In this document: positions 16,376 through 36,291 of the stretch, one piece after another
How the letters are laid out: each line of letters starts with the position of its first letter
Position numbering within the stretch: position 1 is the stretch's first letter
Origin: Pseudomonadota bacterium
GTDB taxonomy: Bacteria; Pseudomonadota; Alphaproteobacteria; SP197
NCBI GenBank assembly: GCA_027592745.1
Contig: JAQCLG010000002.1
Location: 1-54,597, forward strand
Direction of reading: 5' to 3'
Length of the DNA: 54,597 nt
Notes under the pieces: generated by a model
Told to the model about the DNA's origin: nothing
Database searches by the model: none
The model's input: only the letters and a program-made list of their open reading frames with translations
Translations under genes and position numbers: made by a program

Positions 16376-16455
16376 CGGTGCCCCCGGCATGGTGTCTGTC
16401 CGAACCCTTCGGCGATGCTACCTGTCGCCACCCTGCGGAACAACCACTGCGGGCA

Positions 16456-16903: not shown

Positions 16904-17224
16904 ATGACACTGGCCCGGCTCTATCTGCTGCTCGTTGTCGTGGGTGTGGTAGTACCCGGCGCTGAATTCGTTGCCTGGCTCTCGATCCATGGTCTTGACG
17001 TGCATGGCTTCTTTCGGGACATGACCGCCAACGGAATTGCCCGCTTCTTTGCCTGGGACGTCGTGATCTCAGCGCTTGTCGTCATCCTCGTCGCCTGCGC
17101 CGACAGACACTGTATCCGTCATGCCTGGCTGCCGGTCGTCGGCACGCTTTGCATCGGTGTGTCGTGCGGCCTGCCGCTCTATCTCTACCTCCGGCAACGT
17201 GCCATCGACACTGGCGCAGCCTAA
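16904..17224 (+). CDS. small integral membrane protein (DUF2834-like)
   Basis: ORF 16808..17224. The start is placed at MTLARLYLLLVVVG. It has three hydrophobic segments. The family call is from memory only. Confidence 0.45.
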   Translation: MTLARLYLLLVVVGVVVPGAEFVAWLSIHGLDVHGFFRDMTANGIARFFAWDVVISALVVILVACADRHCIRHAWLPVVGTLCIGVSCGLPLYLYLRQRAIDTGAA

Positions 17225-19209: not shown

Positions 19210-19219
19210 CGGCCCGCCC

Positions 19220-21205
19220 TCACAGCGACATGGCGACGCGGCGACCGTCATAGATGGCGCCCGAAGCGAAGTGGAAGGCGATGCAGTCGCCCGCGGCATG
19301 GACATCCGGCGTGCCGGCAAGCGCAAGGAACAGCGCGTCGTCGGACTTGGGCGTCTCGGCCAGGACCAGCGTGTCGAAGGGTTTGCTCTCCTCGGCGCCG
19401 GTCGGCAGATGACGGATCGTGGCACCGTCGCCCCGCCAGCGCATGACCGCGCTCACCGGCCGCATGTCGGCTCCTGCCCTGGCCAGTCCCTTGCGGATCG
19501 CCTTGTCGGTCGAGCCGCGCGCAGCCTCCATGGCAACATAGGCATCGCTGGTGACGATGGTGACCTCATGGCCTTCCTGGGCCAGCTTCAGCGCCGTGCC
19601 TGGGCCGGCCCAGGAACCGCCCAGATCGTCGATCACGAGCACGCGCCTGCCCGCAGCGACCCGGCCCGAAAGCACATCGTTGATCGAGCAGACGTTGCCG
19701 AGCTCGACGCCGGGCAGGCTGTCGACTTCCGGCAGGCCGCGCTGGTAACCGGTGAGCGGCGGGCGCGCGCCGGTGGCGATCACCACCTTGTCGGCCCCGA
19801 AGGCGCGCACAGCATCGGCATCCATCGCACGGCCGCGGCGCACCGCCACGCCGAGCCGGGCAAGTTCGGCCTCGTACCAGGCCAGGTGCGGTTCGATCTC
19901 GTTGCGCATGGGCTGGCGCGCGGCCAGGCGCCAGTCGCCGCCCAGGTGGTCGCCGGCCTCGGTGAGCGTCACCTTGTGGCCGCGCTCGGCGGCCACACGC
20001 GCGGCCTCCATGCCCGCGGGACCACCTCCGACGACCAGCACCTTCAGCGATTCCGGTGCGGGCGAGAAGCCGTCGCCGCCCCACTCGAACTCGCGCCCGG
20101 CGGAGGGATTGACCAGGCAGGAAATCCAGTAGTCGCGCCGGCGTCGTCCGATGCACTGCTGGTTGCACGAGATGCAGGGTCGGATCGTCTCGGCCTTGCC
20201 TGCTGCCGCCTTGTTGGCCAGATGCGGGTCGGCGATCTGGCCGCGCACGATGGAAACCATGTCGGCCAGGCCTTCGGCGACGATACGCTCGCCGTTCTCG
20301 GGTGTCTTGACGCGCGCCTCGCACTGCACGCGGGCATGCTTGCACACCGCCTTGAGCCGGCCGGTGAATTCCTCGCCCTTCATGGCCTGCTCGAAGACCG
20401 GCGGGATGATGGTGGTGAAACCCCAGTAGCTGCCCCGTCCGAGGGTGACGTAGTCGATCAGCGCCCGTTCGTCGTGCCAGGCGACGGCCTGCTCCAGGGA
20501 GTCGATGTCCTGGACCTCGGCGGCGCCGGGGTCGATCGCCACCGCCAGGCCGCAGACGAAATCCTCGCCGCAGGCCTTGCGGATACGACTGTAGATTTCC
20601 GTGGAGAAGCGCATGCGGTTGTCGAAGCTGCCACCCCAGCGGTCCTCGCGCCGGTTGGTCAGCGGCGACCAGAACTGCTCCAGCAGCGCCGAATAGGCGG
20701 CCATGATCTCGATGCCGTCGAAGCCTGCCTGCTTTGCCCGACGCGCTGCGGCGACGTGGCCCTCGATGACTTCCTCGACTTGCGCGTCAGTCATGGCGTG
20801 GCTGCCGTCGCTGTCGAACATCGAGGGCAAACCCGAGGGCGACCAGTTCTCAGCAAAGCTGTTGTCCCAGTCGCCGTGGGCGCCGACGTGGTAGAGCTGC
20901 TGCACGATCGCGGCGCCGTGGCTCTTCACTTCCTCGGTGATGCGGCGAAAGTGCGGTATGACGGCATCGCTGTCGTGCAGGAAGTTGCCGCGCACGATGA
21001 CGGCGGTGCGGTGGACCGGCACCGGCTCGACCACGATCATCGCCGCACCGCCCCTGGCGCGCTCCCGGTAGTATCCCAGGTGACGTTCGCCGGGGATGCC
21101 TTCCTCGCTCATGTTGGCGGTGTGCGCCCCGAAGACGATGCGGTTCTTCAGCGTCAGATGGCGCAGGGCCAGCGGCGCGAAGAGATGGGGATAAGGCGAC
21201 GTCAT
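19220..21205 (-). CDS. NADH:flavin oxidoreductase / StcD-DgcA-type demethylase, tandem paralog
   Basis: 661 aa starting MTSPYPHLFAPLALRHLTLKNR. It has the same architecture as its neighbour (RPCISCNQQCIGR and VLVVGGGPAGMEAA). It lies 10 nt upstream of its paralog. Confidence 0.8.
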   Translation of the reverse strand: MTSPYPHLFAPLALRHLTLKNRIVFGAHTANMSEEGIPGERHLGYYRERARGGAAMIVVEPVPVHRTAVIVRGNFLHDSDAVIPHFRRITEEVKSHGAAIVQQLYHVGAHGDWDNSFAENWSPSGLPSMFDSDGSHAMTDAQVEEVIEGHVAAARRAKQAGFDGIEIMAAYSALLEQFWSPLTNRREDRWGGSFDNRMRFSTEIYSRIRKACGEDFVCGLAVAIDPGAAEVQDIDSLEQAVAWHDERALIDYVTLGRGSYWGFTTIIPPVFEQAMKGEEFTGRLKAVCKHARVQCEARVKTPENGERIVAEGLADMVSIVRGQIADPHLANKAAAGKAETIRPCISCNQQCIGRRRRDYWISCLVNPSAGREFEWGGDGFSPAPESLKVLVVGGGPAGMEAARVAAERGHKVTLTEAGDHLGGDWRLAARQPMRNEIEPHLAWYEAELARLGVAVRRGRAMDADAVRAFGADKVVIATGARPPLTGYQRGLPEVDSLPGVELGNVCSINDVLSGRVAAGRRVLVIDDLGGSWAGPGTALKLAQEGHEVTIVTSDAYVAMEAARGSTDKAIRKGLARAGADMRPVSAVMRWRGDGATIRHLPTGAEESKPFDTLVLAETPKSDDALFLALAGTPDVHAAGDCIAFHFASGAIYDGRRVAMSL

Positions 21206-21281: not shown

Positions 21282-21920
21282 ATGACCGCAGCCAGCTATC
21301 AGGCGCTGACCGACATCGCGACCATCGCCTGGCGCGCCGCGGCAGCCCAACCCTTTGCCCCCCGCACCGAACTCGACCGGGCGGTCACCCTGCTTTCTGG
21401 CCTTTCGTTCGCCGGTCAGGCGAGCCCGCGCAGCCACGGGGTCGTGGAGCGCCACCTCCGGCCGCGCGCAGTGCGTCATCGCCATGCCGGTGCGCTGCTC
21501 GACACGCTGCTCGAGACCGCCCCGACGATCGACTGGATCGGCGGCGACAGCGGCTATGGCAGCGAGCCGGGCATGGAGGCGTTCTGCGCCAACTATGCCT
21601 TCTGTGCGCTTGCCGGCCCGGCGCGCTGGGCAACGGGCTGCTCGGCGGTTTCCGACGAGGTCGGCTTCAACTTCACGGTCCAGGGGCCGAACGTCACCTA
21701 TCCCGACCACGCCCACAAGGCGATCGAGCTCTACTACGTGGTCTCCGGCAAGGCGCTGTGGAAACGCGGCGATGAACCCTGGGTCGAGCGTTACCCCGGC
21801 GAGGTCATCCTGCACACCGCCGGCATGCGCCACGCGATGAAGACCGCCGATGAGCCTCTGGTGGCCATGGCAGTCTGGATCAGCGATATCCAGGCGCCAC
21901 TGGTCGTCGTGCGGGCGTGA
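21282..21920 (+). CDS. cupin-domain protein, DddL-like (DMSP lyase family) candidate
   Basis: 212 aa with C-terminal cupin metal motifs YPDHAHKAIELYYVVSG and HTAGMRHAM, ending PLVAMAVW. The resemblance to DddL is recalled from memory, not searched. Confidence 0.5.
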   Translation: MTAASYQALTDIATIAWRAAAAQPFAPRTELDRAVTLLSGLSFAGQASPRSHGVVERHLRPRAVRHRHAGALLDTLLETAPTIDWIGGDSGYGSEPGMEAFCANYAFCALAGPARWATGCSAVSDEVGFNFTVQGPNVTYPDHAHKAIELYYVVSGKALWKRGDEPWVERYPGEVILHTAGMRHAMKTADEPLVAMAVWISDIQAPLVVVRA

Positions 21921-21930: not shown

Positions 21931-22842
21931 CTAGACCTGTGGCAGCGGATGACGCTTGCGCATGCCCGTGACAGCGTTGAAGACGATGCCGATCAGCACC
22001 AGTCCGCCGCCTATTAAGGTGGCGGTGACGGGGATCTCGTCGAGCAGGACCGCGACCCAGATCGGCCCGAAGATCACTTCCGTCAGCGACAGCATGGCAA
22101 GTTCCGCGGCCGGCACGTTCTTTGCGCCGCCGATGAACAGGATCATGCCGAGCGTCATCTGCACCATGCCCATCAGCGCGGTGACGACAAGGTCGTTGGT
22201 CGAGACCGCCAGGCCCTCGCCGCCCGAGAGCGCCAGCGTGATGCCACAGGCACTGGAGATCATGGTGCCCAGCACGGCCGAGGGCAGCATGTCGTTGGCA
22301 TTTCCGGCGCGAATGCAGACCGCGAACATCGAGAAGGCGGTCACCGCGACCAGGGCCATGACATCGCCCATGTAGCGGCCCGAACCCAAACCGCCGCCGA
22401 CCATGGTGGCAATGCCCGCCGCGACCGCGACCATCGCCAGCAACGTGGCGCCGCGCACCCTTTCGCGCAGCAGGACCCAGGCGATCAGCGCCGTGATCAT
22501 GGGCGATGCGCCCAGGATCAGATTGGTGTTGGCCACGTAGGTCATCGAGAGCGAGAACATGTAGCAGATGTTGGCCGTGGCGATGGCGATCGCCGCGGCG
22601 ACGCCCCCCACGCCCATGGCCCGGAACTTACCCAGCAGGCCGCCGCGGTAGCGCCAGGCCAGGTAGGCGCCCATGGTCAGCCACATGAAGGAGGTGCGGT
22701 AGGCCACGATCTGCCAGACCGTGGCGTCCTCGATCATGCGGAACAGCAGTCCGCCCAGGCTCCACATGAAACCGCCGGCGGCGACCATGAGGACGCCGCG
22801 CAGATAACCCGCCGGCCGCGGCGCAACGACGGCGGCGCTCAT
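21931..22842 (-). CDS. DMT-superfamily (EamA-like) transporter
   Basis: 303 aa with about 10 hydrophobic helices and a duplicated EamA-like layout. The start overlaps the stop of the upstream VOC gene (ATGA). Confidence 0.8.
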   Translation of the reverse strand: MSAAVVAPRPAGYLRGVLMVAAGGFMWSLGGLLFRMIEDATVWQIVAYRTSFMWLTMGAYLAWRYRGGLLGKFRAMGVGGVAAAIAIATANICYMFSLSMTYVANTNLILGASPMITALIAWVLLRERVRGATLLAMVAVAAGIATMVGGGLGSGRYMGDVMALVAVTAFSMFAVCIRAGNANDMLPSAVLGTMISSACGITLALSGGEGLAVSTNDLVVTALMGMVQMTLGMILFIGGAKNVPAAELAMLSLTEVIFGPIWVAVLLDEIPVTATLIGGGLVLIGIVFNAVTGMRKRHPLPQV

Positions 22843-23195
22843 GCCTCATGCACCTGCAGGAAACCCAGAGGATTGCCGAAGGGGTCGAAGAAGTCGCAGG
22901 TCGACAGGGTGGCATCGACTCGTACCGCCGGACCGGCCTCGATACCGAAGGCTTCGTCGAGAAATGCGCGCGCCACCTCGATGTCGTTCACCGCGAAACG
23001 CAGCGGACCTGCGTGACCTGCCTCCAGCCGTTCCTGAAGCTGCAGCCAGAAACCCGGCACGACCTCCCATTCGACGAAATCCTCGCCCATGCGCACATCG
23101 GGTTCGCGCCCCAGAAGCCTTTCGTAGAAGGCTTCGGCGACATCAATGTCGCTGACCGCATACCGGACGGTCACCATATTGGTCGCTATCGGCAT
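22839..23195 (-). CDS. VOC (glyoxalase/bleomycin-resistance) family protein
   Basis: ORF 22839..23270. The start is placed at MPIATNMVTVRYAVSD. The sequence FYERLLG...DPFGNPLGF is typical of small VOC proteins. Confidence 0.6.
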   Translation of the reverse strand: MPIATNMVTVRYAVSDIDVAEAFYERLLGREPDVRMGEDFVEWEVVPGFWLQLQERLEAGHAGPLRFAVNDIEVARAFLDEAFGIEAGPAVRVDATLSTCDFFDPFGNPLGFLQVHEA

Positions 23196-23306
23196 TATCC
23201 CCGCCCCTGCTGGCGTGCCGAGATTGCCTGCAGCGCGATCTCCATTGCCAGCAAATTCACGCGCCCGCACGGGACGCCGGGTAAAGGAGGATCGCCGATA
23301 CCCGGC

Positions 23307-24842
23307 TCAGCTCACAAGGTCGGGCAGCTCGCCCCGACGCCGGTTCATGAACGCCTGCAGCGCCTCGTCGACGGCGGGGTCGAGGTCGGGTGCCTGGTAT
23401 TGCGACAGCCGCCATTTGGCGGTGGCGGCGGCGCGCTGGTCGAGGGTGCGGGCGCCTTCGGCCTCCCACTGCTCGAAGCTGTTGTTGTCAGCCAGTTCGG
23501 GGATGAAGAAACCGTTGAGATAGTTGCGCTGGGTGTGGGCGCAACCGAGATAATGGTTGCCCGGCCCGACCTCGCGGACCGCTTCCATGGCCAGGCCGTT
23601 TTCCGAAAGGTCGATTGCCTTGGAGAAGGACTGCAGCATGGCGATCTGCTCGCAGTCCATGACGAACTTGGCATAACCCGCCGAGAGTCCGGCCTCCAGC
23701 CAGCCCGCCGAATGCAGCACGAAGTTGGTGCCGGCAAGCAGCGTGGCGGTCATGGTCTGCATGGATTCATAGGCCGCCTGGGCATCGGCGACCTTCGAGC
23801 CGTTCAGCATGCCGCCCGATCGCAGGGGCACCTTGTAGCGGCGCGCGAGCTGGCCGACGCAGTAGATCATCTGCAGCGTCTCGGGCGTGCCCATCATCGG
23901 CGCACCCGACTGCATCGAGACGGTGGCAAGGAAGCTGCCGTAGACCATCGGCACGCCCGGCTTGACAAGCTGGCTGTAGGCCAGGCCCGCGGTCACCTCG
24001 GCGTTGAGCTGGGCGACTGCGCCGGCGGTGGCGACCGGAGCCATGGCGCCGGCCATGATGAAGGGCGTGACCAGTACCGCCTGGTTGTGCTGGGCGTAGT
24101 GGCGCAGCGAACCCAGCATCGAGGCATCCCAGACCAGCGGCGAATTGCAGTTCACCACAGAGGTCATGACCGTGTTGTTGGCGACAAAATCCTCGCCGAA
24201 CAGGATCTCGACCATCTTGCAGGAATCATAGGCGCGATCGGGAGCCGACTGCACACCCATGAAGGGTTTGTCGCTGTACTTGATGTGGCTGTAGACGATG
24301 TCGAGATGGCGCTTGGGCACCGGCACGTCGATCGGTTCGCAGATGATACCGCCGCTGTGGTGCAGCACCGGGGTCATGTAGGTCAGCTTGATGAAGTTCT
24401 GCAGGTCGTCGAGCGTGGCGTAGCGGCGCACGTTTTCCAGGTCGCGCACGAAAGGCGAGCCGAAGGTCGGGGCAAAGACCGTGTTCTTCCCGCCGATCTC
24501 GACATTGCGATCGGGATTGCGCGCGTGCTGGGTGTACTGCTCGGGGATCAGCGCCAGCTTCTCGGCGATCAGTTCCCGCGGGATGCGCACCCGTTCGCCC
24601 TGGACATCGGCGCCGGCCTCCTTCCACTGCGCAAGGGCAACCTCGTCGCGGAAATCGATGCCGATCTCCTCGAGGATCGTCATGGAGGTGTCGTGCAGGA
24701 GGTCGATGCCGGCGGAATCGAGCAGTTCGTACACGGGGATTTCCCGCGTGATGTAGCGCTTCTGGACGATCGGACCGCCGATGCGTTCGGCGCGCCGCGC
24801 CGCGCGGCCGCCGCGGCGACCCGCCTGTTCCATAGTCGCCAT
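23307..24842 (-). CDS. MttB-superfamily (trimethylamine methyltransferase family) methyltransferase, non-pyrrolysine type; substrate unknown
   Basis: ORF 23307..24944. The start is placed at MATMEQ (24842). The 512-aa reading frame is uninterrupted, with no internal TAG. Strings such as VFAPTFGSPFV, VVNCNSPLVWD, PFIMAGAMAPVT and GTNFVLHSAGWLE are characteristic of the MttB/MtgB family. Confidence 0.85.
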   Translation of the reverse strand: MATMEQAGRRGGRAARRAERIGGPIVQKRYITREIPVYELLDSAGIDLLHDTSMTILEEIGIDFRDEVALAQWKEAGADVQGERVRIPRELIAEKLALIPEQYTQHARNPDRNVEIGGKNTVFAPTFGSPFVRDLENVRRYATLDDLQNFIKLTYMTPVLHHSGGIICEPIDVPVPKRHLDIVYSHIKYSDKPFMGVQSAPDRAYDSCKMVEILFGEDFVANNTVMTSVVNCNSPLVWDASMLGSLRHYAQHNQAVLVTPFIMAGAMAPVATAGAVAQLNAEVTAGLAYSQLVKPGVPMVYGSFLATVSMQSGAPMMGTPETLQMIYCVGQLARRYKVPLRSGGMLNGSKVADAQAAYESMQTMTATLLAGTNFVLHSAGWLEAGLSAGYAKFVMDCEQIAMLQSFSKAIDLSENGLAMEAVREVGPGNHYLGCAHTQRNYLNGFFIPELADNNSFEQWEAEGARTLDQRAAATAKWRLSQYQAPDLDPAVDEALQAFMNRRRGELPDLVS

Positions 24843-24959
24843 CTCCCGAACTCCCCGATCATGCCGTCTGGGGGCACTTTCGGGCCACGTCGCCCGGCCT
24901 GTCAAAAGCTCAATTGGCGACGGGTTCTGCGGTCCCGGGGCCACACACCGGCCACTTCC

Positions 24960-25036
24960 GTCGCGATTTGTTCGCTTGCGCCCGGGAATGATCGGCCGAT
25001 GTCGCGATCACGACACCGCGTGTCGCGATTATATTA
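24960..25036. promoter_or_regulatory. candidate operator/promoter in the mttB-corrinoid divergent intergenic region
   Basis: Three copies of GTCGCGAT (core palindrome TCGCGA) lie at 24960, 25001 and 25022. The spacings are 41 and 21 bp. The last copy abuts an AT-rich TATATTA (25030..25036), which is rare in this GC-rich DNA. Confidence 0.3.
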
Positions 25037-25111
25037 GCCCCCGCGGGGCCGGGGGAACTACGTCTCGCTTCGGGCAAAGGGGCCCGACGCACGCCAGAGC
25101 TGGAGCCTGTC

Positions 25112-25822
25112 ATGGCCGACGAAGAGGATCTCGACCTCAATACCCTCGACGACGACGAACTTGTGCAGCAGATGCACGAGGACCTCTACGACGGCCTGGC
25201 CGAAGAGGTCTGCACGGGCGTCAACATCCTGCTCGGTCGCGAGTGGACCCCCTACAAGGTCCTGACCGAGGCCCTGGTCGAGGGCATGCGCATCGTCGGC
25301 ATCGATTTCCGCGACGGCATCCTGTTCGTGCCCGAGGTGTTGCTGGCCGCCAACTCGATGAAGGCCGGCATGACGATCCTTCGTCCCCTCCTGGCCGAGA
25401 CCGGCGCGCCCAAGCAGGGCTCGATCGTGATCGGCACCGTCAAGGGCGACATCCACGACATCGGCAAGAATCTGGTCGGCATGATGCTGGAGGGCGCCGG
25501 TTTCGACGTCCACAACATCGGCATCAACAACGATGCCGACGCCTATCTGGCCGCACTGGAGGAGCACAAGCCCGACTTCCTCGGCATGTCGGCCCTGCTG
25601 ACGACCACCATGCCCTACATGAAGGTCGTCATCGACACCCTCAAGGAGCGCGGCCTGCGCGAGGACTACATGGTCCTGGTGGGCGGTGCGCCGCTCAACG
25701 AGGCGTTCGCCAACAGCGTCGGCGCCGATGCCTATTGCCGCGATGCGGCGGTGGCGGTCGAGACGGCCAAGACCATGGTCGCCGAAAAGCGCAAGTCCAA
25801 CTCGGCCGGCGCCGCAAACTGA
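25112..25822 (+). CDS. cobalamin-binding corrinoid protein (MtbC/MttC/MtqC-like)
   Basis: 236 aa with the B12-binding DxHxxG motif (GDIHDIGKN) followed by SALLTTT and GGAP. Confidence 0.85.
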   Translation: MADEEDLDLNTLDDDELVQQMHEDLYDGLAEEVCTGVNILLGREWTPYKVLTEALVEGMRIVGIDFRDGILFVPEVLLAANSMKAGMTILRPLLAETGAPKQGSIVIGTVKGDIHDIGKNLVGMMLEGAGFDVHNIGINNDADAYLAALEEHKPDFLGMSALLTTTMPYMKVVIDTLKERGLREDYMVLVGGAPLNEAFANSVGADAYCRDAAVAVETAKTMVAEKRKSNSAGAAN

Positions 25823-25826
25823 TCTG

Positions 25827-26438
25827 ATGGCGAAGCGCGACCACAGCCTGGTGATTGCCTGCGGCGCGCTGGCCTGGGAGATCATGGCCCTGGTCCGCGC
25901 CAACGGCTGGGATGCGTTCGACGTGGAATGCCTCCCGGCCAACTGGCACAACCGCCCCGAACGCATCCCGCAAGGCGTACGCGAGAAGATCCATGCCGGC
26001 CGGGAGCGCTATGACCACATCTTCGTGGCCTATGGCGACTGCGGCACCGGCGGCATGCTCGACGCCGTGCTGGAGGAGGAAGGGGTGGAGCGGATCGGCG
26101 GCGCCCACTGCTACCAGTTCTTTGCAGGCGAGCAGGAATTTCTCGACCTTCACGACGCCGAACCCGGCACGTTCTATCTGACCGACTACCTGGCCAAGCA
26201 TTTCGAGACCCTGGTGATCAAGGGCATGGGCATCGACCGCCACCCCGAACTGATGCCGATGTACTTCGGCAACTACACGCGCCTGATCCACCTGGCCCAG
26301 ACGCAGGACGACGCGATACGACAACTGGCCGAGGCGGCGGCCCATCGGCTGGGGCTGCGGTTCGAATACCGCTTCACTGGCTACGGGGGCCTGGCGCCCC
26401 TGCTCGACAAGGCCCAGACCGCAGGAGCACAGCACTGA
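25827..26438 (+). CDS. DUF1638 domain protein
   Basis: ORF 25686..26438. The start is placed at MAKRDHSLVIACGAL, 4 nt after the corrinoid gene stop. The protein is about 200 aa. The family call is from memory of DUF1638 genes next to corrinoid methyltransferase genes. Confidence 0.65.
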   Translation: MAKRDHSLVIACGALAWEIMALVRANGWDAFDVECLPANWHNRPERIPQGVREKIHAGRERYDHIFVAYGDCGTGGMLDAVLEEEGVERIGGAHCYQFFAGEQEFLDLHDAEPGTFYLTDYLAKHFETLVIKGMGIDRHPELMPMYFGNYTRLIHLAQTQDDAIRQLAEAAAHRLGLRFEYRFTGYGGLAPLLDKAQTAGAQH

Positions 26439-26743
26439 TGGCGACCCTGACGATCGTTTACTGGCGCGACATTCCCGCCCAGGTCATTGCCAAGGCCGGA
26501 CGCACCACGGCCAAGCGGGTGCTGCCCGAGCGCTTCGAGAAGGCGATCGACCAGTCGGCCATGCGCGCCAAGCTGCGCGACACCGATTCCTACCTCGAGC
26601 ACTGGCGCCGCAGCGATCCCATCGCCTGCGGCGACGACCTGGAAGCCGAGGCCGAGGCGCTGGCGACCCGGCTCGACACCGAATACAGCGACGACGTGCT
26701 CGTCGCCCACATCAAGAACGGCGGCCTCAAGCCGGCCGACTGA
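26438..26743 (+). CDS. small conserved protein of unknown function (resembles proteins annotated as 'virulence factor' domain)
   Basis: 101 aa starting MATLTIVYWRDIPAQVIAK. The start overlaps the DUF1638 stop by 1 nt (TGATG). Confidence 0.45.
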   Translation: MATLTIVYWRDIPAQVIAKAGRTTAKRVLPERFEKAIDQSAMRAKLRDTDSYLEHWRRSDPIACGDDLEAEAEALATRLDTEYSDDVLVAHIKNGGLKPAD

Positions 26744-26757
26744 CAAGGGGATATCCG

Positions 26758-27663
26758 ATGAAGACCAAGGGGCAACTGGAAGCCAAGCTGTCGCGTGGCG
26801 AATTCGTCATCACTGCCGAAACGACGCCGCCCGACGGCGCCGACGAGGCCAGCGTGATGGACAAGGTCGGCTGCCTGAAGGGCCTGGTCGACGCGGTCAA
26901 CGTGACCGACGGCGCCGGCGCCCGCAGCCACATGTCGGCCTTTGCCTGTGCCGCGATCATGGCCCGCAACGGCATCGAGCCGGTGCTGCAGTTCACCGTG
27001 CGCGACCGCAACCGGCTCGCCATCCAGGGTGAGTTCATCGGCGCACCCGCCATGGGCATCCCCAACATCCTGTGCCTGCACGGCGATGCCATCACCAACG
27101 GCGACCAGCCCGAGGCAAAGCCGGTCGAGGACGTCGACAGCAAGGGCCTGATGTCGATGGCGCGCATGCTGCGCGACGAAGGCAAGCTGCCCTCGGGCCG
27201 CGAGATCAACCCGGCCCCGGGGCTGCTGATCGGCGCCGCCGACACGCCGCGCGACCCCGAGCCCGGCTTCAAGCCTGCCGGCCTGCAGGGCAAGATCGAC
27301 GCCGGCGCCGACTTCTTCCAGACCCAGTTCGCCTACGATATCGAAGTCCTCAAGCGCTACATGACCGTGCTCAACGATGCCGGCATCACCGAACAGGCCC
27401 ATTTCATCGTCGGCGTCGGGCCGCTGATCTCGGCCAAGTCGGCGCGCTGGATGACGCAGAACCTGTTCGGCGTGCACGTCCCCGACCACGTCATCGCACG
27501 CCTCGACGGCGCGGAGGACCAGAGGGCCGAAGGCCGCAAGATCTGCGCCGAGTTGGTCGAGCAGTTCAAGGAAATCACGGGCATCAGCGGAGCGCACCTG
27601 ATGGCGCCGCGGGGCGAGAAGCTGATCGCCGAAACCCTGACCGAATACAAACTGCGCGGCTGA
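26758..27663 (+). CDS. methylenetetrahydrofolate reductase (MetF-like)
   Basis: 301 aa with MTHFR TIM-barrel strings: FVITAETTPP, VNVTDGAGA, LQFTVRDRNR, ILCLHGD and DFFQTQFAYD. Confidence 0.8.
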   Translation: MKTKGQLEAKLSRGEFVITAETTPPDGADEASVMDKVGCLKGLVDAVNVTDGAGARSHMSAFACAAIMARNGIEPVLQFTVRDRNRLAIQGEFIGAPAMGIPNILCLHGDAITNGDQPEAKPVEDVDSKGLMSMARMLRDEGKLPSGREINPAPGLLIGAADTPRDPEPGFKPAGLQGKIDAGADFFQTQFAYDIEVLKRYMTVLNDAGITEQAHFIVGVGPLISAKSARWMTQNLFGVHVPDHVIARLDGAEDQRAEGRKICAELVEQFKEITGISGAHLMAPRGEKLIAETLTEYKLRG

Positions 27664-27689
27664 TCGGCCGCGTTCCGGGAGTGGTGCCC

Positions 27690-28171
27690 ATGCGCGCCGT
27701 TCGTCATTGGTCCGTTTGTAATGCCAGAGGCCTGATGCGCCTCTACGACCTGTTCCAGAGCACCATCGTGGCGCTGGAACCGGTCGTGCGGCGGATCGGC
27801 TACGATCGCCTGGAACGGCCGGTGGCCGCAGTCGAACACGCCATCAAGGGCGCCATGTTCGACTGCCAGATGTGCGGCCAGTGCGCGCTTTCCTCGACCG
27901 GCATGTCGTGCCCGATGAACTGCCCCAAGAACCTGCGCAACGGTCCCTGCGGCGGCGTCCGCGCAGACGGCCATTGCGAGGTCAAGCCCGAGATGCCCTG
28001 CGTCTGGGTCAAGGCCTGGGCCGGCGCGCAGGCGATGATGAGCGAGAACATCCTCGACGTGCAGCTGCCAGTCGACAACCGGCTGAAGGGGCAATCCTCC
28101 TGGCTGCGCATCATCCGGGAGGTCCGTGCAGGTACGCTGCCTCGGCCGGCATCCTCGGCGAGGAAGGCGGC

Positions 28172-28175
<4 letters not shown>
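27690..28175 (+). CDS. Cys-rich MTHFR C-terminal-domain / MetV-like protein
   Basis: ORF 27072..28175. Candidate starts are at 27690 and 27735. It has eight Cys within about 50 residues (CQMCGQCALSSTGMSCPMNCPKNLRNGPCGG...HCEV...PCVW). The stop overlaps the next start (ATGA). Confidence 0.65.
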
Positions 28176-29259
<1,084 letters not shown>

Positions 29260-29263
<4 letters not shown>

Positions 29264-30168
29264 CCGAAACTGTCATCAGCTCGGCGACTAAGACCGTCAT
29301 CATCGGCTTCGACCGCCCGTTCACGGTGATCGGCGAGCGCATCAACCCCACGGGCCGCAAGAAACTGGCCGAGGAGATGGCCGCGGGCGACTACAGCCGC
29401 GTGCAGTCCGATACCATTGCCCAGGTCGAGGCCGGCGCCCATATGCTGGACGTCAACGCTGGCGTGCCGCTCGCCGACGAACCGCAGATGCTCTACGATT
29501 CGATCAAGCTGGTGCAGTCGCTGACCGACATCCCCCTCTCCATCGACAGCTCGATCGTGGCCGCCCTGGAACGGGGCCTGGAGGCCTATTCGGGCAAGGC
29601 GCTGGTCAATTCCGTCACCGGCGAGGAAGAGCGCCTGGAGGTAGTGCTGCCGCTGGTCGCCAAGTACGGCGCTGCGGTGGTCGCGATCTCCAACGACGAG
29701 ACGGGCATCTCGGAGGATCCCGACGAGCGTTTCGCCGTCGCCAAGAAGATCGTCGAACGCGCCCAGGACTACGGCATCAAGCCCTGCGACGTCGTCGTCG
29801 ATCCGCTGGTCATGCCGATCGGCGCCATCGGCCAGGCGGGGCGCACCGCCTTCACCATCATCCGCCGCCTGCGCGAGGAGCTGAAGGTCAACACGACCTG
29901 CGGCGCCTCCAACATCTCCTTCGGCCTGCCGGCGCGCCCCGCGCTCAACGCCGCATTCCTGACCATGGCTGCGGCCAGCGGCATGACCTCGGCAATCACC
30001 AATCCCCTGGAGCCCGAGATCATGTCGGCGCTGCGTGCGGCCGACGTGATGAACGGCGTCGACAAGAACTGCCGCACCTGGATCTCGCTCAACTCGGGCC
30101 ACGGCAACCAGGGCGGAATGATCTCTGAGGCGCGCGCCAAGCGCCGGGAAGGACGTCGCCGGTCGTGA
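29260..30168 (+). CDS. methyltetrahydrofolate:corrinoid methyltransferase (pterin-binding, MtrH/AcsE/CmuB/MtqA-like)
   Basis: ORF 28603..30168. The start is placed at MTETVISSATK (29260, ATGA overlap). Strings include FTVIGERINPTG, LDVNAG, SIDSS, LVNSV and GASNISFGLP. Confidence 0.8.
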
Positions 30169-32186
30169 GTGAAGATCCCCTCGTCGTATTCACCCCCTCG
30201 GGCCGGCGCGGCCGCTTCAAGCGAGGCACGCCGCTGCTGCAGGCCGCGCGCGAGCTCGGCGTCGATCTCGATTCGGTGTGCGGCGGTCGGGGCATCTGCA
30301 CGCGCTGCCAGGTCAACATCGGCGACGGCGAGTTCGCCAAACACGGCATCACGTCCAACAACGACCACCTGACGCCCTATACCGACGCCGAGGAGCGCCA
30401 GCAGAAGGACGGGCGTCTGGCGGCCGGGCGCCGCCTGTCGTGCCAGGCGCGCATCGGCGGCGACCTTGTCGTCGACGTTCCCGAAGAGAGCCAGATGCAC
30501 CGGCAGATCGTGCGCAAGCGCGCCGATGCCCGCGCGATCGAGCTCGATCCGGTGGTGCGCCCGATGTATGTCGAGATCGCCCCGCCCGACATGAACGAGC
30601 CGGCCGCGCACCTGCGTCGCCTGGAGGCTGCGCTCAAGGAAACCTGGGGTGTCGAGATCAACGGCGTCGACGTGCATGTCCTGCGCAAACTGCACAAGAC
30701 CCTGGAGGACGGCGCCTACAAGGCGACCGTGATCGTGCGCCGGGGCAAGCGCATCGTCGATATCCGCTCGGGCTTCCACGACAAGATCTACGGCTTGGCC
30801 GTCGATGTCGGCTCGACCACCATCGCCATGCACCTGTGCGACCTGCTGACCGGCGAGGTGCTGGCCTCCGTCGGGCGCATGAACCCGCAGATCCGCTACG
30901 GCGAGGACCTGATGAGCCGGGTCAGCTACGCCATGATGAACGAGGGCGGTGCCGAACTGATGACCATGGCCGTGCGCGATGCGCTCAATGGCCTGGCCCA
31001 GGAGGTTGCCGCCGAGGCCGGCGTGCCGCTCACCGACATCATGGAGGTGACGATCGCCGGCAATCCGGTGATGCACCATCTGGTGCTCGGCCTCGATCCC
31101 ACGCCGCTGGGCTTTGCGCCCTTCGCACTGGCGACCGACGATGCCACCATCCTGCTCGCCAGCGACATCGACCTGATGCTGAACCCGGGCTCGCGCATCT
31201 ACGTGCTGCCCTGCATCGCCGGACATGTCGGCGCCGATGCCGCCGGCGTCGTGCTCTGCGAGATGCCCTACAAGGCCGAGGAGATGACGCTGATCGTCGA
31301 TGTCGGCACCAATGCCGAGATCGTACTGGGCGACAAGCACCGCCTGCTGGCCGCCTCCTCTCCCACCGGTCCGGCCTTCGAGGGCGCCCAGGTCAGTTCC
31401 GGCCAGCGCGCCGCGCCGGGAGCCATCGAACGCGTCCGCGTCGATCCCGAAACCCTGGAACCGCGCTTCAAGGTGATCGGCGACGACCGCTGGTCCGACG
31501 AAGAGGGCTACAACGTGCGCCCCACGGGCATCTGCGGTTCGGGCATCATCGAGGTGCTGGCCGAGATGTACCTGGCGGGCATCATCACCGCCGACGGCGT
31601 GATCGACGGCAGCATGGCGGAGCGCTCGCCGCGCATCGTCGCCCAGGACCGCACCTTCGCCTACATTCTGCACGAGGGCGAGCAGCGCATCACGATCACC
31701 CAGAACGACGTGCGCCAGATCCAGCTCGCCAAGGGCGCACTCTACGCCGGCGCGCGCCTGCTGATGGACCACATGGGCATCGAGACGGTCGAGAAGATCA
31801 CCCTGGCGGGCGCCTTCGGCAGCCACATCGATACCAAGTACGCCATGATCCTGGGCATGATCCCCGATTGCGACCTCGCCAAGGTCGGCTCGGCGGGCAA
31901 TGCCGCGGGCACCGGCGCCCGCATTGCCCTGCTCAACGGCCAGCTGCGCCGCGAGCTGGAGGAACAGGTCCGCCGCATCGAGAAGATCGAGACCGCGGTG
32001 GAACCCAAGTTCCAGGAGCACTTCGTCGACGCCATGGCGATCCCCAACAAGACCGCCAGCTACCCGAACCTGAAGAAGGTCGTGACGCTGCCCGAGCCGA
32101 AGTTCTCCGCGGCCGACGCCGAGGATGGCGGCCGTCGCCGCCGCCGCCGCGAGGGTCGGGGACGCAACGACGAAGCCGCCGAGTAG
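30165..32186 (+). CDS. corrinoid reductive activase (RACo/RamA-like): N-terminal 2Fe-2S ferredoxin plus ASKHA ATPase domain
   Basis: 673 aa. The GTG start overlaps the previous stop (GTGA). It has a plant-type ferredoxin Cys pattern (CGGRGICTRCQV...SCQA). It also has an ASKHA phosphate motif (LAVDVGSTTIAMHL) and GSGIIE. Confidence 0.8.
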   Translation: MSEDPLVVFTPSGRRGRFKRGTPLLQAARELGVDLDSVCGGRGICTRCQVNIGDGEFAKHGITSNNDHLTPYTDAEERQQKDGRLAAGRRLSCQARIGGDLVVDVPEESQMHRQIVRKRADARAIELDPVVRPMYVEIAPPDMNEPAAHLRRLEAALKETWGVEINGVDVHVLRKLHKTLEDGAYKATVIVRRGKRIVDIRSGFHDKIYGLAVDVGSTTIAMHLCDLLTGEVLASVGRMNPQIRYGEDLMSRVSYAMMNEGGAELMTMAVRDALNGLAQEVAAEAGVPLTDIMEVTIAGNPVMHHLVLGLDPTPLGFAPFALATDDATILLASDIDLMLNPGSRIYVLPCIAGHVGADAAGVVLCEMPYKAEEMTLIVDVGTNAEIVLGDKHRLLAASSPTGPAFEGAQVSSGQRAAPGAIERVRVDPETLEPRFKVIGDDRWSDEEGYNVRPTGICGSGIIEVLAEMYLAGIITADGVIDGSMAERSPRIVAQDRTFAYILHEGEQRITITQNDVRQIQLAKGALYAGARLLMDHMGIETVEKITLAGAFGSHIDTKYAMILGMIPDCDLAKVGSAGNAAGTGARIALLNGQLRRELEEQVRRIEKIETAVEPKFQEHFVDAMAIPNKTASYPNLKKVVTLPEPKFSAADAEDGGRRRRRREGRGRNDEAAE

Positions 32187-32189: not shown

Positions 32190-32897
32190 TCAGTCGGCTC
32201 CCGTGCCGGTCCGACGACCGTCCGGGCGAAGCCCGAGTTGGTGGTCGATGTAGTCGTGGCAGATCACCACGGCCTTCTGCCTCGTCGTCGAGCCCGCCCC
32301 GATCGCAAGTTCGAGCCAGAGTCCGTCGATCAGCGCGATCAGACCGGTGGCCGCGCCTTCGGTATCGATGGCAATCCCGAGCTTTTCCGCCGTCGCGCGG
32401 AACTGCGCGAGCGAACGGTTGCGGTAGCCGACGTAGAGCTGCCGGTTGGCCTCGCGCACCACTTCGTTGAAGCGGATTTCGTGCCAGAGCGCCAGGAATG
32501 CCGAGCTGCTCGTTTCGGTGAAGACCTGCGGTGAAAACATCGCCCTGGGCACGGCCTTCAGGCGCGCCAGGGGTTCCTCGCCCGCGCGGGCGACCTGCCG
32601 GGCGATCTCGGCGGCGACGGCGGTAAAGAGGTGGTCGAGCGCGGCGACCAGCAGTTCGTCCTTGCTGGCATAGTAATGCCCGATCAGCCCGTGGCTGGTT
32701 CCGGCTGCGGTGGTGATCGCACGCACCGTGGCCCCTGCCACGCCCTTCTCGGCCAGCAGGGCGATGGTCGCCTCCATCAGGCGCTGGCGCCGGAACTCGT
32801 TGATCTCGGGTTGGGTGCCCGGCCGTCCGCGTGTCTTCGTCGTCAAAGCAGCCTCCTGACAGGCGCCCAGTGTAGACCACCGGAGCGTTCGAGACAT
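32190..32897 (-). CDS. TetR-family transcriptional regulator (BetI-like)
   Basis: ORF 32190..33044. The start is uncertain, with candidates at 32912, 32897 and an internal TTG. The HTH region is RRQRLMEATIALLAEKGVAGATVRAITTAAGTSHGLIGHYYASKDELL. Confidence 0.75.
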   Translation of the reverse strand: MSRTLRWSTLGACQEAALTTKTRGRPGTQPEINEFRRQRLMEATIALLAEKGVAGATVRAITTAAGTSHGLIGHYYASKDELLVAALDHLFTAVAAEIARQVARAGEEPLARLKAVPRAMFSPQVFTETSSSAFLALWHEIRFNEVVREANRQLYVGYRNRSLAQFRATAEKLGIAIDTEGAATGLIALIDGLWLELAIGAGSTTRQKAVVICHDYIDHQLGLRPDGRRTGTGAD

Positions 32898-32964
32898 CCG
32901 GGAACTGGACATTTGTCCAGCTTCTTGCCACGCTGCGTTCTCATACCAAAGCAGGAGCCAAGCG

Positions 32965-33798
32965 ATGGGCAATCTCAGCCGGCTGCCATCGGACACCAGC
33001 GTCGCCGCGATCAACGCCGCACTCGATGCCGACGGCGTCGTCATTGTGGAGCATTTCTACGACGCAGACTGGGTCGCCCGGTACAATGGCGAGGTCCAGC
33101 CCTTCATCGACAACCACAAGCGGACCTACACCGGGGTCGATGTCTTCGACGATTTCCTTGGCCATCACACGGTTCGCCTTCAGGGCCTTCCGGCCAAGAC
33201 CCCTGCCCTGATCGACGCGCTGATCGATCCCCGCATGCTTGCCGTCATGGATCACCTCCTGCTGCCGCTCTGCACCGACTACATCCTTTCGGCGGCCGAA
33301 CTGATCGAGATCCGCAAGAGCGAGACGGCCCAGAGCCTGCACACCGACAACAACTCCTAGCCGACGGCGATCCAGGGCATGGGGCCGCTCTGCGTCAACG
33401 CCATGATCGCGCTCACCGACTACACCGCAGACAACGGCGCCACCCTTGTGGTGCCGGGCAGCCACCTGTGGTCGAAGGGCCGCGTGCCCCAGGCCGAGGA
33501 CATCCATCCGGCCGAGATTCCGGCAGGATCGGTGGCGATCTTCAGCGGCGAGACCATCCACGCCGGCGGCACCAGCACCTCGGAACGCATCCGGCGCGGA
33601 CTTTCGGTCTCCTACTGCGCCGGCTGACTGCGCCCGGTGGAGAACTGCTACCTCAACCTGACGGTCGACCAGGTCGCCGCCATGCCCGAGCGCGCCCAGG
33701 AACTGCTGGGCTTCGACGTCTATGACGTTACCGGTCGCGGCAACGGCGTGCTGGGTTACTACGAGATGGGCAACCCGAAGGACCTGTTCAGGACCTGA
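32965..33798 (+). pseudogene. PhyH-family Fe(II)/2-oxoglutarate dioxygenase with two in-frame stops
   Basis: Three same-frame segments read ...QSLHTDNNS*PTAIQGMGPL...ETIHAGG...SYCAG*LRPVENCYLNL...DLFRT. The first stop is TAG at 33358..33360 and the second is TGA at 33625..33627. The HxD...H iron ligands are visible. The joined length of 278 codons is normal for the family. Confidence 0.8.
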
Positions 33799-35325: not shown

Positions 35326-36291
35326 TCAGACGACGGCGCGGCGCTCCTCGCGCGGGGTGCGCCCGAAGTACTCGCGGTAGCGCCGGCTGAAATGAGAGGC
35401 CGACACGAATCCCGCGGCAAGCGCGATCGAAAGGATCGAGGCCGAACCCTGCATCAGCATCAGGCGTGCGTGGTGCAGGCGCAGTTCGCGGTAGTAGCGC
35501 GACGGCGTGCGCCCCAGGTGTTTCTTGAACAGCCGCTCGAGCTGGCGCGTCGAGAGCCCGACAGCATCGGCGATGTCGGGCAGCGGCAGCGGCTCCTCGA
35601 GATTGGCCTCCATCTCGGCGATGGCCGAGAGCAGCTTGGGATCGCTCACCCCGACGCGGCTCTGCAGCGCCATGCGCTGGTGGTCGTGGGCCTCGCGGAT
35701 GCGCTCGTGGATGAACTGCTCGGAGACCTTGCCGGCAAGTTCGGCGCCATGTTCCAGGGTGATCATGTGGAGGGTCAGGTCGAGCGCCGCGGTGCCGCCC
35801 GAGCAGGTTATGCGGTTGCGGTCGATCTCGAAGATGTCGTCGGTCACCTCAAGTTCGGGGTGCTCGTCGGCGAAACTCTCCATGTCCTCCCAGTGGATCG
35901 TGCAGCGGTAGCCGTTGAGCAGACCGGCACGCGCCAGGAGATGGCTTCCCGTGCACAGCGCACCGACGATCCCGCCCTGGCGCGCGATGCGCCGCAGCCA
36001 GGCCATGACGGTGCGGTCCTCGTAGCGATGGGCATCGATCCCGCCGCAGACGAACAGCGCCTCGCAGGTCTCGGTCTCGGCAATGGAGGCGTCGGCGAGC
36101 ACAAAGAGCCGATTGCTGGCCTGCACCGGATTGCCGTCCTTGGAGACCACCCGCCAGTCGTAGAGCTGGCTGCCGCTCATGCGGTTGGCCGAGCGCAGGG
36201 GCTCGACGGCGGCGGTGAACGCCATCATCGAGAAGTTGGGGACGAGGTAGTAGGTGAAGACCCTTGGCTGCGCCATGGCCCTGCCCGGCAA
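35326..36291 (-). CDS. GlxA-family regulator (DJ-1/PfpI-like domain plus AraC HTH; GbdR/CdhR/SouR-like)
   Basis: 321 aa. The N-terminal amidotransferase-like domain has LCTGSHLLARAGLL. The C-terminal AraC HTH has LSTRQLERLFKK...GFVSASHFSRRYREYFG. Confidence 0.85.
   Translation of the reverse strand: MPGRAMAQPRVFTYYLVPNFSMMAFTAAVEPLRSANRMSGSQLYDWRVVSKDGNPVQASNRLFVLADASIAETETCEALFVCGGIDAHRYEDRTVMAWLRRIARQGGIVGALCTGSHLLARAGLLNGYRCTIHWEDMESFADEHPELEVTDDIFEIDRNRITCSGGTAALDLTLHMITLEHGAELAGKVSEQFIHERIREAHDHQRMALQSRVGVSDPKLLSAIAEMEANLEEPLPLPDIADAVGLSTRQLERLFKKHLGRTPSRYYRELRLHHARLMLMQGSASILSIALAAGFVSASHFSRRYREYFGRTPREERRAVV

Follow-up and report, generated by a model that had tools for sequence, protein, structure and literature searches.

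Gene content and layout of the module

ORF calling together with Pfam and NCBIfam profile searches in the window (the whole 54,597-nt stretch of DNA that was analysed) recovered every gene that the original prediction had assigned to a corrinoid-dependent methyl-transfer module, at the coordinates listed below. The profile matches also back each of the family assignments made for this module, that of a VOC neighbour apart. Gene content, conserved motifs and synteny were observed directly, and the features are the following:

21931..22842, minus strand: EamA/DMT-family transporter, co-directional with the MttB homologue (PF00892, E 1e-21)
22839..23270, minus strand: small VOC-like protein, weak assignment (Glyoxalase_4, 21-22 bits, cutoff 27)
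23307..24842, minus strand: MtgB-like non-pyrrolysine MttB-superfamily methyltransferase, 511 aa (PF06253, E 1e-217)
24960..25030, no strand: operator-like repeats in the divergent promoter region, with three GTCGCGAT copies and an inverted repeat ATCACGACAC-N3-GTGTCGCGAT
25112..25822, plus strand: MtgC-like corrinoid protein, 236 aa (B12-binding cap PF02607 and B12-binding PF02310; DxHxxG motif as GDIHDIG)
25827..26438, plus strand: DUF1638 protein, putative accessory to corrinoid reactivation (PF07796, E 5e-30)
26438..26743, plus strand: 101-aa PF13769 ('Virulence_fact') protein (E 2e-22)
26758..27663, plus strand: methylene-THF reductase (MTHFR) paralogue a (PF02219, E 6e-33)
27681..28175, plus strand: MetV-like Cys-rich protein with nine Cys, DUF5981 (MTHFR/MetF C-terminal; PF12225, E 1e-26)
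28172..29263, plus strand: MTHFR paralogue b, widely conserved, MetF2 counterpart (PF02219, E 3e-35)
29260..30168, plus strand: MtgD-like, pterin-binding methyl-THF:corrinoid methyltransferase (PF00809, E 3e-29; PRK07535, 355 bits, cutoff 259)
30165..32186, plus strand: RACo/RamA-type reductive activase with 2Fe-2S and ASKHA ATPase parts (Fer2, RACo_linker, Raco_middle, RACo_C_ter)
32190..33044, minus strand: BetI-type TetR regulator, convergent with the operon end (TetR_N, TetR_C_6; the BetI models score 119 and 115 bits, slightly below cutoff, which is 118 for NF001978)
35326..36291, minus strand: GbdR-like AraC/DJ-1 regulator (DJ-1_PfpI, HTH_18; NCBIfam GbdR 384 bits, cutoff 480)

The gene for the MttB homologue is divergent from the operon that begins with the corrinoid gene. 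The eight plus-strand genes between 25112 and 32186 are joined by junctions of +4, −1, +14, +17, −4, −4 and −4 nt, in line with the short or overlapping stop/start codons that had been described, and the MTHFR b gene overlaps the pterin-binding methyltransferase gene by 4 nt. Because the junctions range only from −4 to +17 nt, they indicate an operon-like chain forming one transcription unit. On the other strand, the predicted EamA gene was borne out and is also found 3' of the MttB gene in the related loci L001, L007, L082 and L083, while the assignment of its neighbour to the VOC family stayed below the profile cutoff. A methyltransferase gene takes the place of the VOC-like gene in L082/L083.

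The arrangement recurs. Among the 80 closest related loci from one genome-collection scan, none of them from Rhodobacterales, the corrinoid gene stands beside the MttB gene in 52, about 39-44 have most of the chain, and synteny of the cluster extends to about 40-50. The gene order is the same in the Sinorhizobium loci L048, L077 and L078 and in CP090106.1, where bmt lies nearby; the annotated S. meliloti cluster, which is syntenic with that of the window, has both bmt and a glycine betaine/proline ABC transporter gene close to it.

The operator-like motif recurs at the equivalent intergenic position in L001 and L082/L083, in a spacer that otherwise differs, and its exact 9-mer has no other occurrence in the window. 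A TetR_C_6 regulator occupies the same position in L082/L083, and a regulator of the GbdR-like type also flanks the module in L007 and L082/L083. The O2-dependent neighbours that had been reported are real, but they form a mixed set of soxBDAG-family genes (positions 1-5093), DAO-type flavoproteins and a PhyH dioxygenase gene that is broken into three frames. The profile searches found no aa3 oxidase subunit IV gene in the window; the candidate, a small membrane ORF at 16808-17224, is a DUF2834 protein. Neither a glycine betaine transporter gene nor one for a canonical dimethylglycine dehydrogenase came to light in the window. The neighbours of the module in this lineage include a DddL-type cupin of the DMSP_lyase family and two Fe-S flavoproteins of the FadH/TMADH family, and in L082/L083 a Rieske oxygenase is found near it.

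The MttB homologue and its likely substrate

The match of the MttB homologue to PF06253 spans the whole profile (1-500 of 500). As predicted, its reading frame is uninterrupted, with no in-frame TAG, and the residue aligned with Pyl334 of MttB is Leu, as in MtgB of Desulfitobacterium hafniense (DhMtgB), which supports the non-pyrrolysine assignment. The protein is 56% identical to the S. meliloti protein 4YYC, itself 96% identical to the cluster-linked Sinorhizobium copy, and 44% identical to DhMtgB. Public annotation calls such homologues 'trimethylamine--corrinoid protein Co-methyltransferase', and membership of PF06253 agrees with that name. A genuine trimethylamine methyltransferase is nonetheless highly improbable: the amber codon is absent and Leu stands at the pyrrolysine position, the TIGR02369 score of 270 bits falls well short of the cutoff of 525, MttB structures are matched weakly (E 2e-36) compared with MtgB (E 2e-125), and trimethylamine is not used by D. 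hafniense MtgB.

Three of the four substrate-contact residues of MtgB are compatible in the MttB homologue. The carboxylate-binding R312 and H348 are conserved and Y97 is replaced by Phe, a change with which the D. hafniense enzyme keeps its activity; F356 is not conserved and has become Gly, and a Trp stands four residues past H348. Since the F356L variant of MtgB shows a Km raised roughly 800-fold, the binding pocket here must differ from that of MtgB. The Gly is present throughout the alphaproteobacterial clade of the MttB homologue, and the resulting Y/F-R-L-H-W-G signature is common to 81 of 87 sequences, the cluster-linked Sinorhizobium copy among them. Where these loci hold a second MttB copy, it has Gly or Ala at position 97 and Val or Thr at the pyrrolysine position, and to judge by these residues the second copies look like the ones that diverged in specificity.

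We consider it likely that the locus encodes a cobalamin-dependent demethylase module for quaternary amines, of the MtgBCD type, in an aerobic, Rhodospirillales-like alphaproteobacterium, with glycine betaine as the most likely substrate. The BetI-like and GbdR-like regulators and the soxBDAG-family genes of the window point to this compound. A possible, if doubtful, alternative is that the same relay serves a different onium compound with a carboxylate group, for instance proline betaine, gamma-butyrobetaine, carnitine or some other betaine, or conceivably the sulfonium DMSP. The F356 to Gly replacement at one of the four MtgB contacts and the Trp beyond H348 would suit such a substrate, R312 is also kept in MttB-family enzymes that act on other acidic quaternary amines, and aerobes hold several MttB paralogues of unknown specificity (four to seven in roseobacters; PMC12478193; bioRxiv 10.64898/2025.12.19.695462). 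The cupin and the FadH/TMADH-family flavoproteins near the module, and the Rieske oxygenase of L082/L083, argue in the same direction. However, the 81 sequences that share the signature include the Sinorhizobium copy, which has bmt and a gene for a glycine betaine transporter nearby, the regulators resemble those that govern choline and glycine betaine catabolism, and it is the second MttB copies, with their other residues, that have the appearance of altered specificity.

Corrinoid, folate and accessory proteins

The predicted corrinoid protein, pterin-binding methyltransferase and reductive activase were all confirmed at the domain level: both B12-binding domains accompany the GDIHDIG motif, PRK07535 exceeds its cutoff, and Fer2 is matched together with three RACo domains. 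The top NCBIfam matches of the corrinoid protein are the MtgC and MtbC corrinoid proteins, all under their cutoffs, and it is 74-80% identical to its counterparts in Rhizobiales loci. For the activase, the AcsV model (407 bits) and the RamA model (128 bits) likewise remain under their cutoffs.

The two MTHFRs and the Cys-rich MetV-like protein were also predicted correctly. MTHFR b, the Glu, Asp and Gln motifs of which align with human MTHFR, is 68-76% identical to its counterparts in Rhizobiales clusters. MTHFR a is 49% identical to MTHFR b and keeps the aligned motifs; among the best 80 related loci it is found only in L001, L007, L082 and L083, and it is a lineage-specific extra copy. The MetV-like gene adjoins an MTHFR gene in 39 of these 80 loci. 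The window showed neither an RnfC2-like nor an Hdr/Mvh partner gene.

Across 44 homologues of the DUF1638 protein, C12, C35, H41, C72, H94 and C95 are invariant, and its AF2 model (pLDDT 90.8) has no significant fold match in the PDB. The 101-aa gene of the original prediction is genuine, although its product belongs to PF13769 and is not of an unknown family. Its presence in 44 of the best 80 related loci makes it a conserved member of the cluster; the homologues listed are about 65-96% identical, with WRDIPAQ and C64 invariant, and the AF2 model (pLDDT 88.9) has no PDB fold match.

A DUF1638 homologue of Phaeobacter inhibens is required for methionine synthesis, and a RamA-like protein and DUF1638 have been tied to a split methionine synthase (Price et al. 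2018, PMC5764234). It is conceivable, though we rate it as rather unlikely, that the corrinoid protein, the pterin methyltransferase, the activase and DUF1638 mainly or also make up the core of a cobalamin-dependent methionine synthase of the split type, in which methyl-THF would pass its methyl group to homocysteine via an MtgE encoded elsewhere and the MTHFRs would run in the reductive direction. MetH is missing from about 70% of the marine genomes with MtgBCD (PMC12478193), and bmt/mtgE lies close to the cluster in Sinorhizobium. Against this, PF02574 (homocysteine S-methyltransferase, the MtgE module) was absent from the ORFs scanned across the 54.6-kb window, and an operon divergent to the MttB homologue with betaine-type regulators at its flank fits a catabolic unit. 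Such a role would moreover be compatible with demethylation and not exclusive of it.

Proposed relay and comparison with known systems

For the demethylase we infer every catalytic step from the homologous systems of R. pomeroyi and P. inhibens. The MtgB-like protein would bind a carboxylate-bearing betaine and transfer one N-methyl group to Co(I) of the MtgC-like corrinoid protein, from whose CH3-Co(III) form the MtgD-like enzyme would pass it to tetrahydrofolate. The MetF/MetV-type MTHFR proteins would then oxidize methyl-THF to methylene-THF, feeding C1 oxidation or assimilation. After oxidative inactivation, Co(I) could be restored through ATP-dependent reduction by the RACo/RamA-type activase with DUF1638, a step on which an oxic cell would depend in particular. 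Should glycine betaine be the substrate, further demethylation of the resulting dimethylglycine would fall to enzymes encoded elsewhere, and the soxBDAG-family genes in the window would fit the last demethylation step. Expression is probably under the adjacent BetI-like and GbdR-like regulators, via the conserved operator-like repeat in the divergent promoter. The present data support the original reading of a corrinoid methyl relay in an aerobe, from a non-pyrrolysine MttB homologue via the corrinoid protein to THF, with activase and MTHFR; its statement that substrate, direction of flux and electron acceptor of the MTHFRs are not deducible from sequence was also right. A more far-reaching view seems improbable to us, namely that the MttB homologue with Gly at the F356 position acts on another onium substrate and that the MetF-MetV-MetF' trio, PF13769 and DUF1638 form a new oxygen-tolerant complex for methyl-THF oxidation and corrinoid maintenance whose electron acceptor is not NAD(P)+.

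The methanogen MttB/MttC/RamA system shares with the window the Pfam family of the methyltransferase, a cognate corrinoid protein and an ATP-dependent reductive activase, whereas pyrrolysine is absent here, the similarity is distant (E 2e-36), and the methyl acceptor is coenzyme M in the methanogens and would be THF here. In Methylobacterium and Hyphomicrobium, CmuA/CmuB/MetF2 likewise bring methyl groups to THF aerobically by way of a corrinoid, and a dedicated MetF paralogue acts next. The CmuAB chloromethane dehalogenase pathway itself is ruled against by the lack of a CmuA-type methyltransferase-corrinoid fusion in the window: the 236-aa corrinoid protein is stand-alone, and the substrate-activating enzyme is of the MttB family (TIM barrel), a family other than that of CmuA. 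The acetogen MetF/MetV pair also combines an MTHFR with a Cys-rich DUF5981/MetV-like partner, and the MTHFR here is of the acetogen type, its best NCBIfam match being the YitJ-type C-terminal MTHFR domain; the differences are an aerobic host, a likely oxidative direction and two MetF paralogues in the lineage. The chemistry of MtgB/MtgC/MtgA of D. hafniense, from quaternary amine to Co(I) corrinoid, is alike, and its MtgB has the Leu, R312 and H348 in common with the MttB homologue, which has the compatible Phe at Y97 but differs in the Gly at F356 and the Trp past H348, and the corrinoid protein lies below the MtgC model cutoffs. D. hafniense and Eubacterium limosum, the source of MtpB, MtcB, MtyB and MthB, are strict anaerobes, unlike the present host.

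The closest likeness is to the aerobic MtgBCD(E) system of R. pomeroyi, P. inhibens and S. meliloti, which, compared at gene-set level, has the same set of MtgB, MtgC, MtgD, activase and DUF1638. Mausz et al. (PNAS 2025, PMC12478193) showed genetically that MtgB (PF06253), MtgC and MtgD of Ruegeria pomeroyi, with RamA-like, DUF1638 and MetF2 proteins, demethylate glycine betaine aerobically, and that MtgC/MtgD have a second role as a split methionine synthase; deletion of mtgB1, mtgC and gbcAB in P. inhibens gave the expected phenotypes (Hammer et al., bioRxiv 10.64898/2025.12.19.695462). The MtgB copies validated or induced in these hosts are MtgB1 (PGA1_RS07270) of P. inhibens and SPO2108 and SPO2134 of R. 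pomeroyi. Together with Price et al. 2018, this published work spans the gene set in aerobes with both genetic and proteomic data. The three studies contradict the earlier view in which only strict anaerobes had yielded characterised non-pyrrolysine MttB enzymes and cmuAB/metF2 was the best-known aerobic analogue. Synteny between the cluster in the window and the one of S. meliloti described by Mausz et al. would largely place the MttB homologue in a clade whose aerobic role and substrate had already been established. In both cases the hosts are aerobic alphaproteobacteria and a MetF paralogue lies beside mtgD. The window differs in that its parts, which lie scattered in the genomes of R. pomeroyi and P. 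inhibens, are gathered in a single compact divergent unit, in that two MTHFR paralogues flank the MetV-like gene, and in that mtgE is absent. As B12-dependent betaine demethylation in aerobes was first described in 2025, the cluster represents a good example of this system and not a new kind.

Gene content and layout of the module

Because the G+C content of the window is 67%, spurious long open reading frames (ORFs) are abundant, and genes were chosen by their third-position G+C followed by a check with profile searches. The genes of the module and the two adjoining minus-strand genes are listed below.

Genes of the methyl-transfer module and its minus-strand neighbors
21931-22842, minus strand: EamA transporter (PF00892, E 1e-21)
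22839-23270, minus strand: putative small VOC/glyoxalase-like protein (sub-threshold match only, 21-22 bits against a cutoff of 27)
23307-24842, minus strand: MttB-family protein of 511 aa (PF06253, E 1e-217, profile positions 1-500 of 500)
25112-25822, plus strand: corrinoid protein (B12-binding cap, B12-binding domain and the motif GDIHDIG)
25827-26438, plus strand: DUF1638 protein
26438-26743, plus strand: 101-aa protein (Pfam PF13769, 'Virulence_fact')
26758-27663, plus strand: first MTHFR
27681-28175, plus strand: DUF5981 protein (MetF C-terminal, MetV-like) with nine cysteines
28172-29263, plus strand: second MTHFR
29260-30168, plus strand: pterin-binding methyl-THF:corrinoid methyltransferase (PRK07535, 355 bits against a cutoff of 259)
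30165-32186, plus strand: activase with Fer2, RACo_linker, Raco_middle and RACo_C_ter domains

The profile searches and the gene spacing bear out the core of the original prediction, namely the presence of these module genes. As had also been claimed, the junctions in the plus-strand chain are short or overlapping (in order +4, −1, +14, +17, −4, −4 and −4 nt), and distances of −4 to +17 nt are typical of an operon. Two smaller genes have to be described differently: the 101-aa ORF is present but belongs to PF13769 rather than to an unknown family, and the ORF following the MttB gene, previously called a VOC gene, exists but matches that family only below threshold. An aa3 oxidase subunit IV gene, which had been named as a neighbor, was found neither by motif search nor by Pfam scans of the leftover small ORFs in the window; the sole unexplained small membrane ORF (16808-17224) is a DUF2834 protein. 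Elsewhere in the window, a PhyH dioxygenase gene (32965-33798, plus strand) is split over three frames, its counterpart in the related loci L082/L083 being intact (277 aa), and an AcrB-type pump and an outer-membrane efflux protein each occupy two ORFs (10298-13935 and 15041-16417, minus strand). These split genes are either pseudogenes or the result of assembly frameshift errors.

The MttB homologue and its regulatory surroundings

The MttB-homologue gene contains no in-frame TAG codon. The residue aligned with pyrrolysine 334 of MttB is a leucine (RSGGMLNGSK in the window protein), as it is in the betaine methyltransferase MtgB (RSGGGLNDSK), and the description of the protein as an uninterrupted, non-pyrrolysine homologue therefore stands. 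Its best match among solved structures is 4YYC, a 'putative trimethylamine methyltransferase' of S. meliloti (E 1.5e-194, 56% identity), followed by the glycine betaine methyltransferase MtgB of D. hafniense (2QNE/9YCE, E about 1e-125, 44% identity), while pyrrolysine-containing MttB (7XCL) is distant (E 2e-36). A genuine TMA methyltransferase was rejected on account of the missing amber codon, the leucine at the pyrrolysine position and the distance from MttB. A CmuAB-type system was likewise considered for the module and rejected, since the corrinoid protein stands alone and the window has no fusion of a CmuA-type methyltransferase to a corrinoid domain.

A study published in 2026 on the active site of MtgB defined four substrate contacts, with Y97 and F356 providing cation-pi interactions and R312 and H348 binding the carboxylate. 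In that study the Y97F variant was nearly wild-type, F356L raised the Km about 800-fold, and R312 was kept in all MttB-family members that use acidic quaternary amines. In our alignment the four positions are occupied in the window protein by Phe, Gly, Arg and His, respectively, with a Trp four residues past the His in addition to the Gly at the F356 site. The resulting Y/F-R-L-H-W-G pattern is common to 81 of the 87 aligned sequences, including 4YYC; the second, lower-identity MttB copies present in some loci have other residues at the Y97 and pyrrolysine positions. These contact residues point to a carboxylate-bearing onium substrate, of which glycine betaine would be one candidate that the sequence alone does not single out.

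The surroundings of the module were examined for regulatory elements. The activase gene converges with the gene of a BetI-type TetR regulator (119 and 115 bits with the BetI models, the latter just below its cutoff of 118), and 3 kb beyond the latter is a GbdR-like regulator of the AraC/DJ-1 type (384 bits against a cutoff of 480). In L082/L083 both regulator types flank the module as well, and in the related locus L007 the GbdR-like type does. The 269-bp divergent promoter region between the MttB and corrinoid genes contains, at 24960-25030, three operator-like copies of GTCGCGAT and the inverted repeat ATCACGACAC-N3-GTGTCGCGAT. These repeats are kept in L001 and L082/L083 despite a diverged surrounding spacer, and they could be where the BetI-like or the GbdR-like regulator binds. 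The entire window had no match in Rfam at gathering thresholds, and hence no detectable cobalamin riboswitch. At the edge of the window (1-5093, minus strand) lies a complete soxB-soxD-soxA-soxG-type heterotetrameric sarcosine-oxidase-family operon, soxG being clipped by the edge, and beyond it are genes for an arginase/agmatinase-family protein and for an Opp-type ABC transporter. Taken together, the regulators, the promoter repeats and the soxBDAG-family operon fit a catabolic regulon of the choline/glycine-betaine type, and none of them proves the substrate.

The window also contains a DddL-type cupin of the DMSP_lyase family (21282-21920, plus strand; PF16867, E 8.5e-24), adjoined by two tandem FadH/TMADH-family flavoproteins with OYE and Pyr_redox domains and an Fe-S cluster (17221-21205, minus strand). 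In L082/L083 such a cupin and one such flavoprotein are found near the module, with PhyH, SDR, GNAT, Rieske oxygenase and M55 peptidase genes in between. The best solved relatives of the flavoproteins are 2-naphthoyl-CoA and 2,4-dienoyl-CoA reductases, ahead of trimethylamine and histamine dehydrogenases, and a role as amine dehydrogenases that would extend the demethylation is ambiguous.

Recurrence of the arrangement and lineage-specific parts

A scan of one genome per species yielded at least 593 relatives, and the neighbor genes of the closest 80 were scored by tblastn with the window's proteins. The arrangement is repeated: the corrinoid gene adjoins the MttB gene in 52 of the 80 loci, and the pterin gene is present in 50, DUF1638 in 46, the activase gene in 44, the PF13769 gene in 44 and the MetV-like gene with the second MTHFR in 39, all of which are lower bounds since many loci are cut at contig ends. 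The main carriers are Mesorhizobium, Sinorhizobium, Rhizobium, Hoeflea, Shinella, Phyllobacterium and Aminobacter, together with some gammaproteobacterial MAGs. A plasmid search returned copies of the MttB homologue in Paracoccus, Sinorhizobium and Mesorhizobium, the tagged roseobacter mtgB genes being absent from the matches listed.

4YYC is 96% identical to a cluster-linked Sinorhizobium copy. In an annotated S. meliloti record, one strand carries genes for an ASKHA protein, a methyl-THF cobalamin methyltransferase, an MTHFR, an MTHFR C-terminal-domain protein, a 'virulence factor', a formyl transferase, DUF1638 and a cobalamin-binding protein, and divergent to this row lies the gene for a trimethylamine methyltransferase family protein; a few kb away lie bmt and a gene for a glycine betaine/proline ABC transporter. 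A PurU-like formyl-transferase-domain gene between the DUF1638 and PF13769 genes occurs in Mesorhizobium and Sinorhizobium (L012, 6560-7955; L084, 8755-9564) and represents a further link to folate C1 metabolism that the window lacks; a DUF4893 gene also occupies this position in Mesorhizobium. Some close relatives have a lone MttB gene, as in L081 (10001-11530), a locus of a 4.2-Mb genome in which the gene for an 82% identical protein lies outside the corrinoid cluster, beside ATP synthase and gcvTHP genes. The linkage of methyltransferase and relay can thus be absent even in near relatives.

Of the two MTHFRs, the first is rare, being seen only in L001, L007 and L082/L083; these are the window's closest relatives, with MttB proteins 69-85% identical. 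The two MTHFRs of the window share 49% identity, and both retain the aligned Glu, Asp and Gln motifs. The extra MTHFR copy is a lineage-specific addition to the pathway. The PF13769 protein is strikingly conserved (about 65-96% identity among listed homologues, with WRDIPAQ and one Cys invariant), and DUF1638 has six invariant Cys/His residues. Their AlphaFold models are confident (pLDDT 88.9 and 90.8, respectively) but have no significant fold relatives in the PDB (best E 0.48 for PF13769; best E 0.019 with TM <0.35 for DUF1638), so that the fold suggests no function for either.

Proposed relay and comparison with published aerobic systems

The best-supported account of the module is a four-step relay, each catalytic step being assigned by homology. 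The MtgB-like enzyme would move a betaine methyl group to Co(I) of the corrinoid protein, the MtgD-like methyltransferase would pass it from CH3-Co(III) to THF, and the MetF/MetV proteins would convert methyl-THF to methylene-THF; an ATP-dependent RACo/RamA-type activase would, with DUF1638, return Co(II) to Co(I). In P. inhibens, methionine synthesis proceeds through a split B12-dependent enzyme that requires RamA-like DUF4445 and DUF1638 proteins (Price et al. 2018, PMC5764234). The module may have a second role of this kind, but the homocysteine-binding module PF02574 had no match in any ORF scanned across the window.

The four-step relay has close published counterparts. In aerobic R. pomeroyi cultures on glycine betaine, choline or carnitine, two PF06253 proteins are induced together with MtgC, the pterin-binding MtgD, a neighboring MetF2, a RamA-like protein and DUF1638, and mtgC and mtgD mutants neither use glycine betaine nor synthesize methionine; in S. 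meliloti, MtgBCDE and the reactivation genes are co-localized (Mausz et al. 2025, PMC12478193). Deletions of mtgB1, mtgC and gbcAB in P. inhibens confirm oxic cobalamin-dependent demethylation of glycine betaine, and mtgBCD is present in 36 of 40 Rhodobacterales genomes (Hammer et al., bioRxiv 10.64898/2025.12.19.695462). The R. pomeroyi and P. inhibens work overturns the premise that the characterized non-pyrrolysine MttB enzymes come from strict anaerobes. The original observation is sound, and its reading as a corrinoid methyl relay is essentially right.

As a version of the aerobic MtgBCD pathway the module is among the most compact, with the substrate methyltransferase, corrinoid protein, THF methyltransferase, activase, DUF1638, PF13769 protein and MetF/MetV set in one divergent unit plus likely regulators, which makes it a handy template for reconstitution of the complete relay. 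It could further help to give roles to DUF1638, the PF13769 protein and an aerobe's MetV-like MTHFR partner, which published models leave unexplained. Its value lies in adding soil/freshwater-type relatives of the Rhodospirillales to the range of a pathway described in 2025 and in flagging an extra, lineage-specific MTHFR, rather than in a new category.

The window module has the same protein set as the aerobic MtgBCD system of R. pomeroyi and P. inhibens and shares its gene order with the cluster of S. meliloti. This largely places it in a clade whose aerobic role is already established, an outcome that the original prediction had itself named as a refutation. The accounts of the aerobic MtgBCD system examined here do not discuss the PF13769 or MetV-like proteins, and only these two and the extra MTHFR go beyond the published models. 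The module thus belongs to a known, recently described system and is not a novel one.
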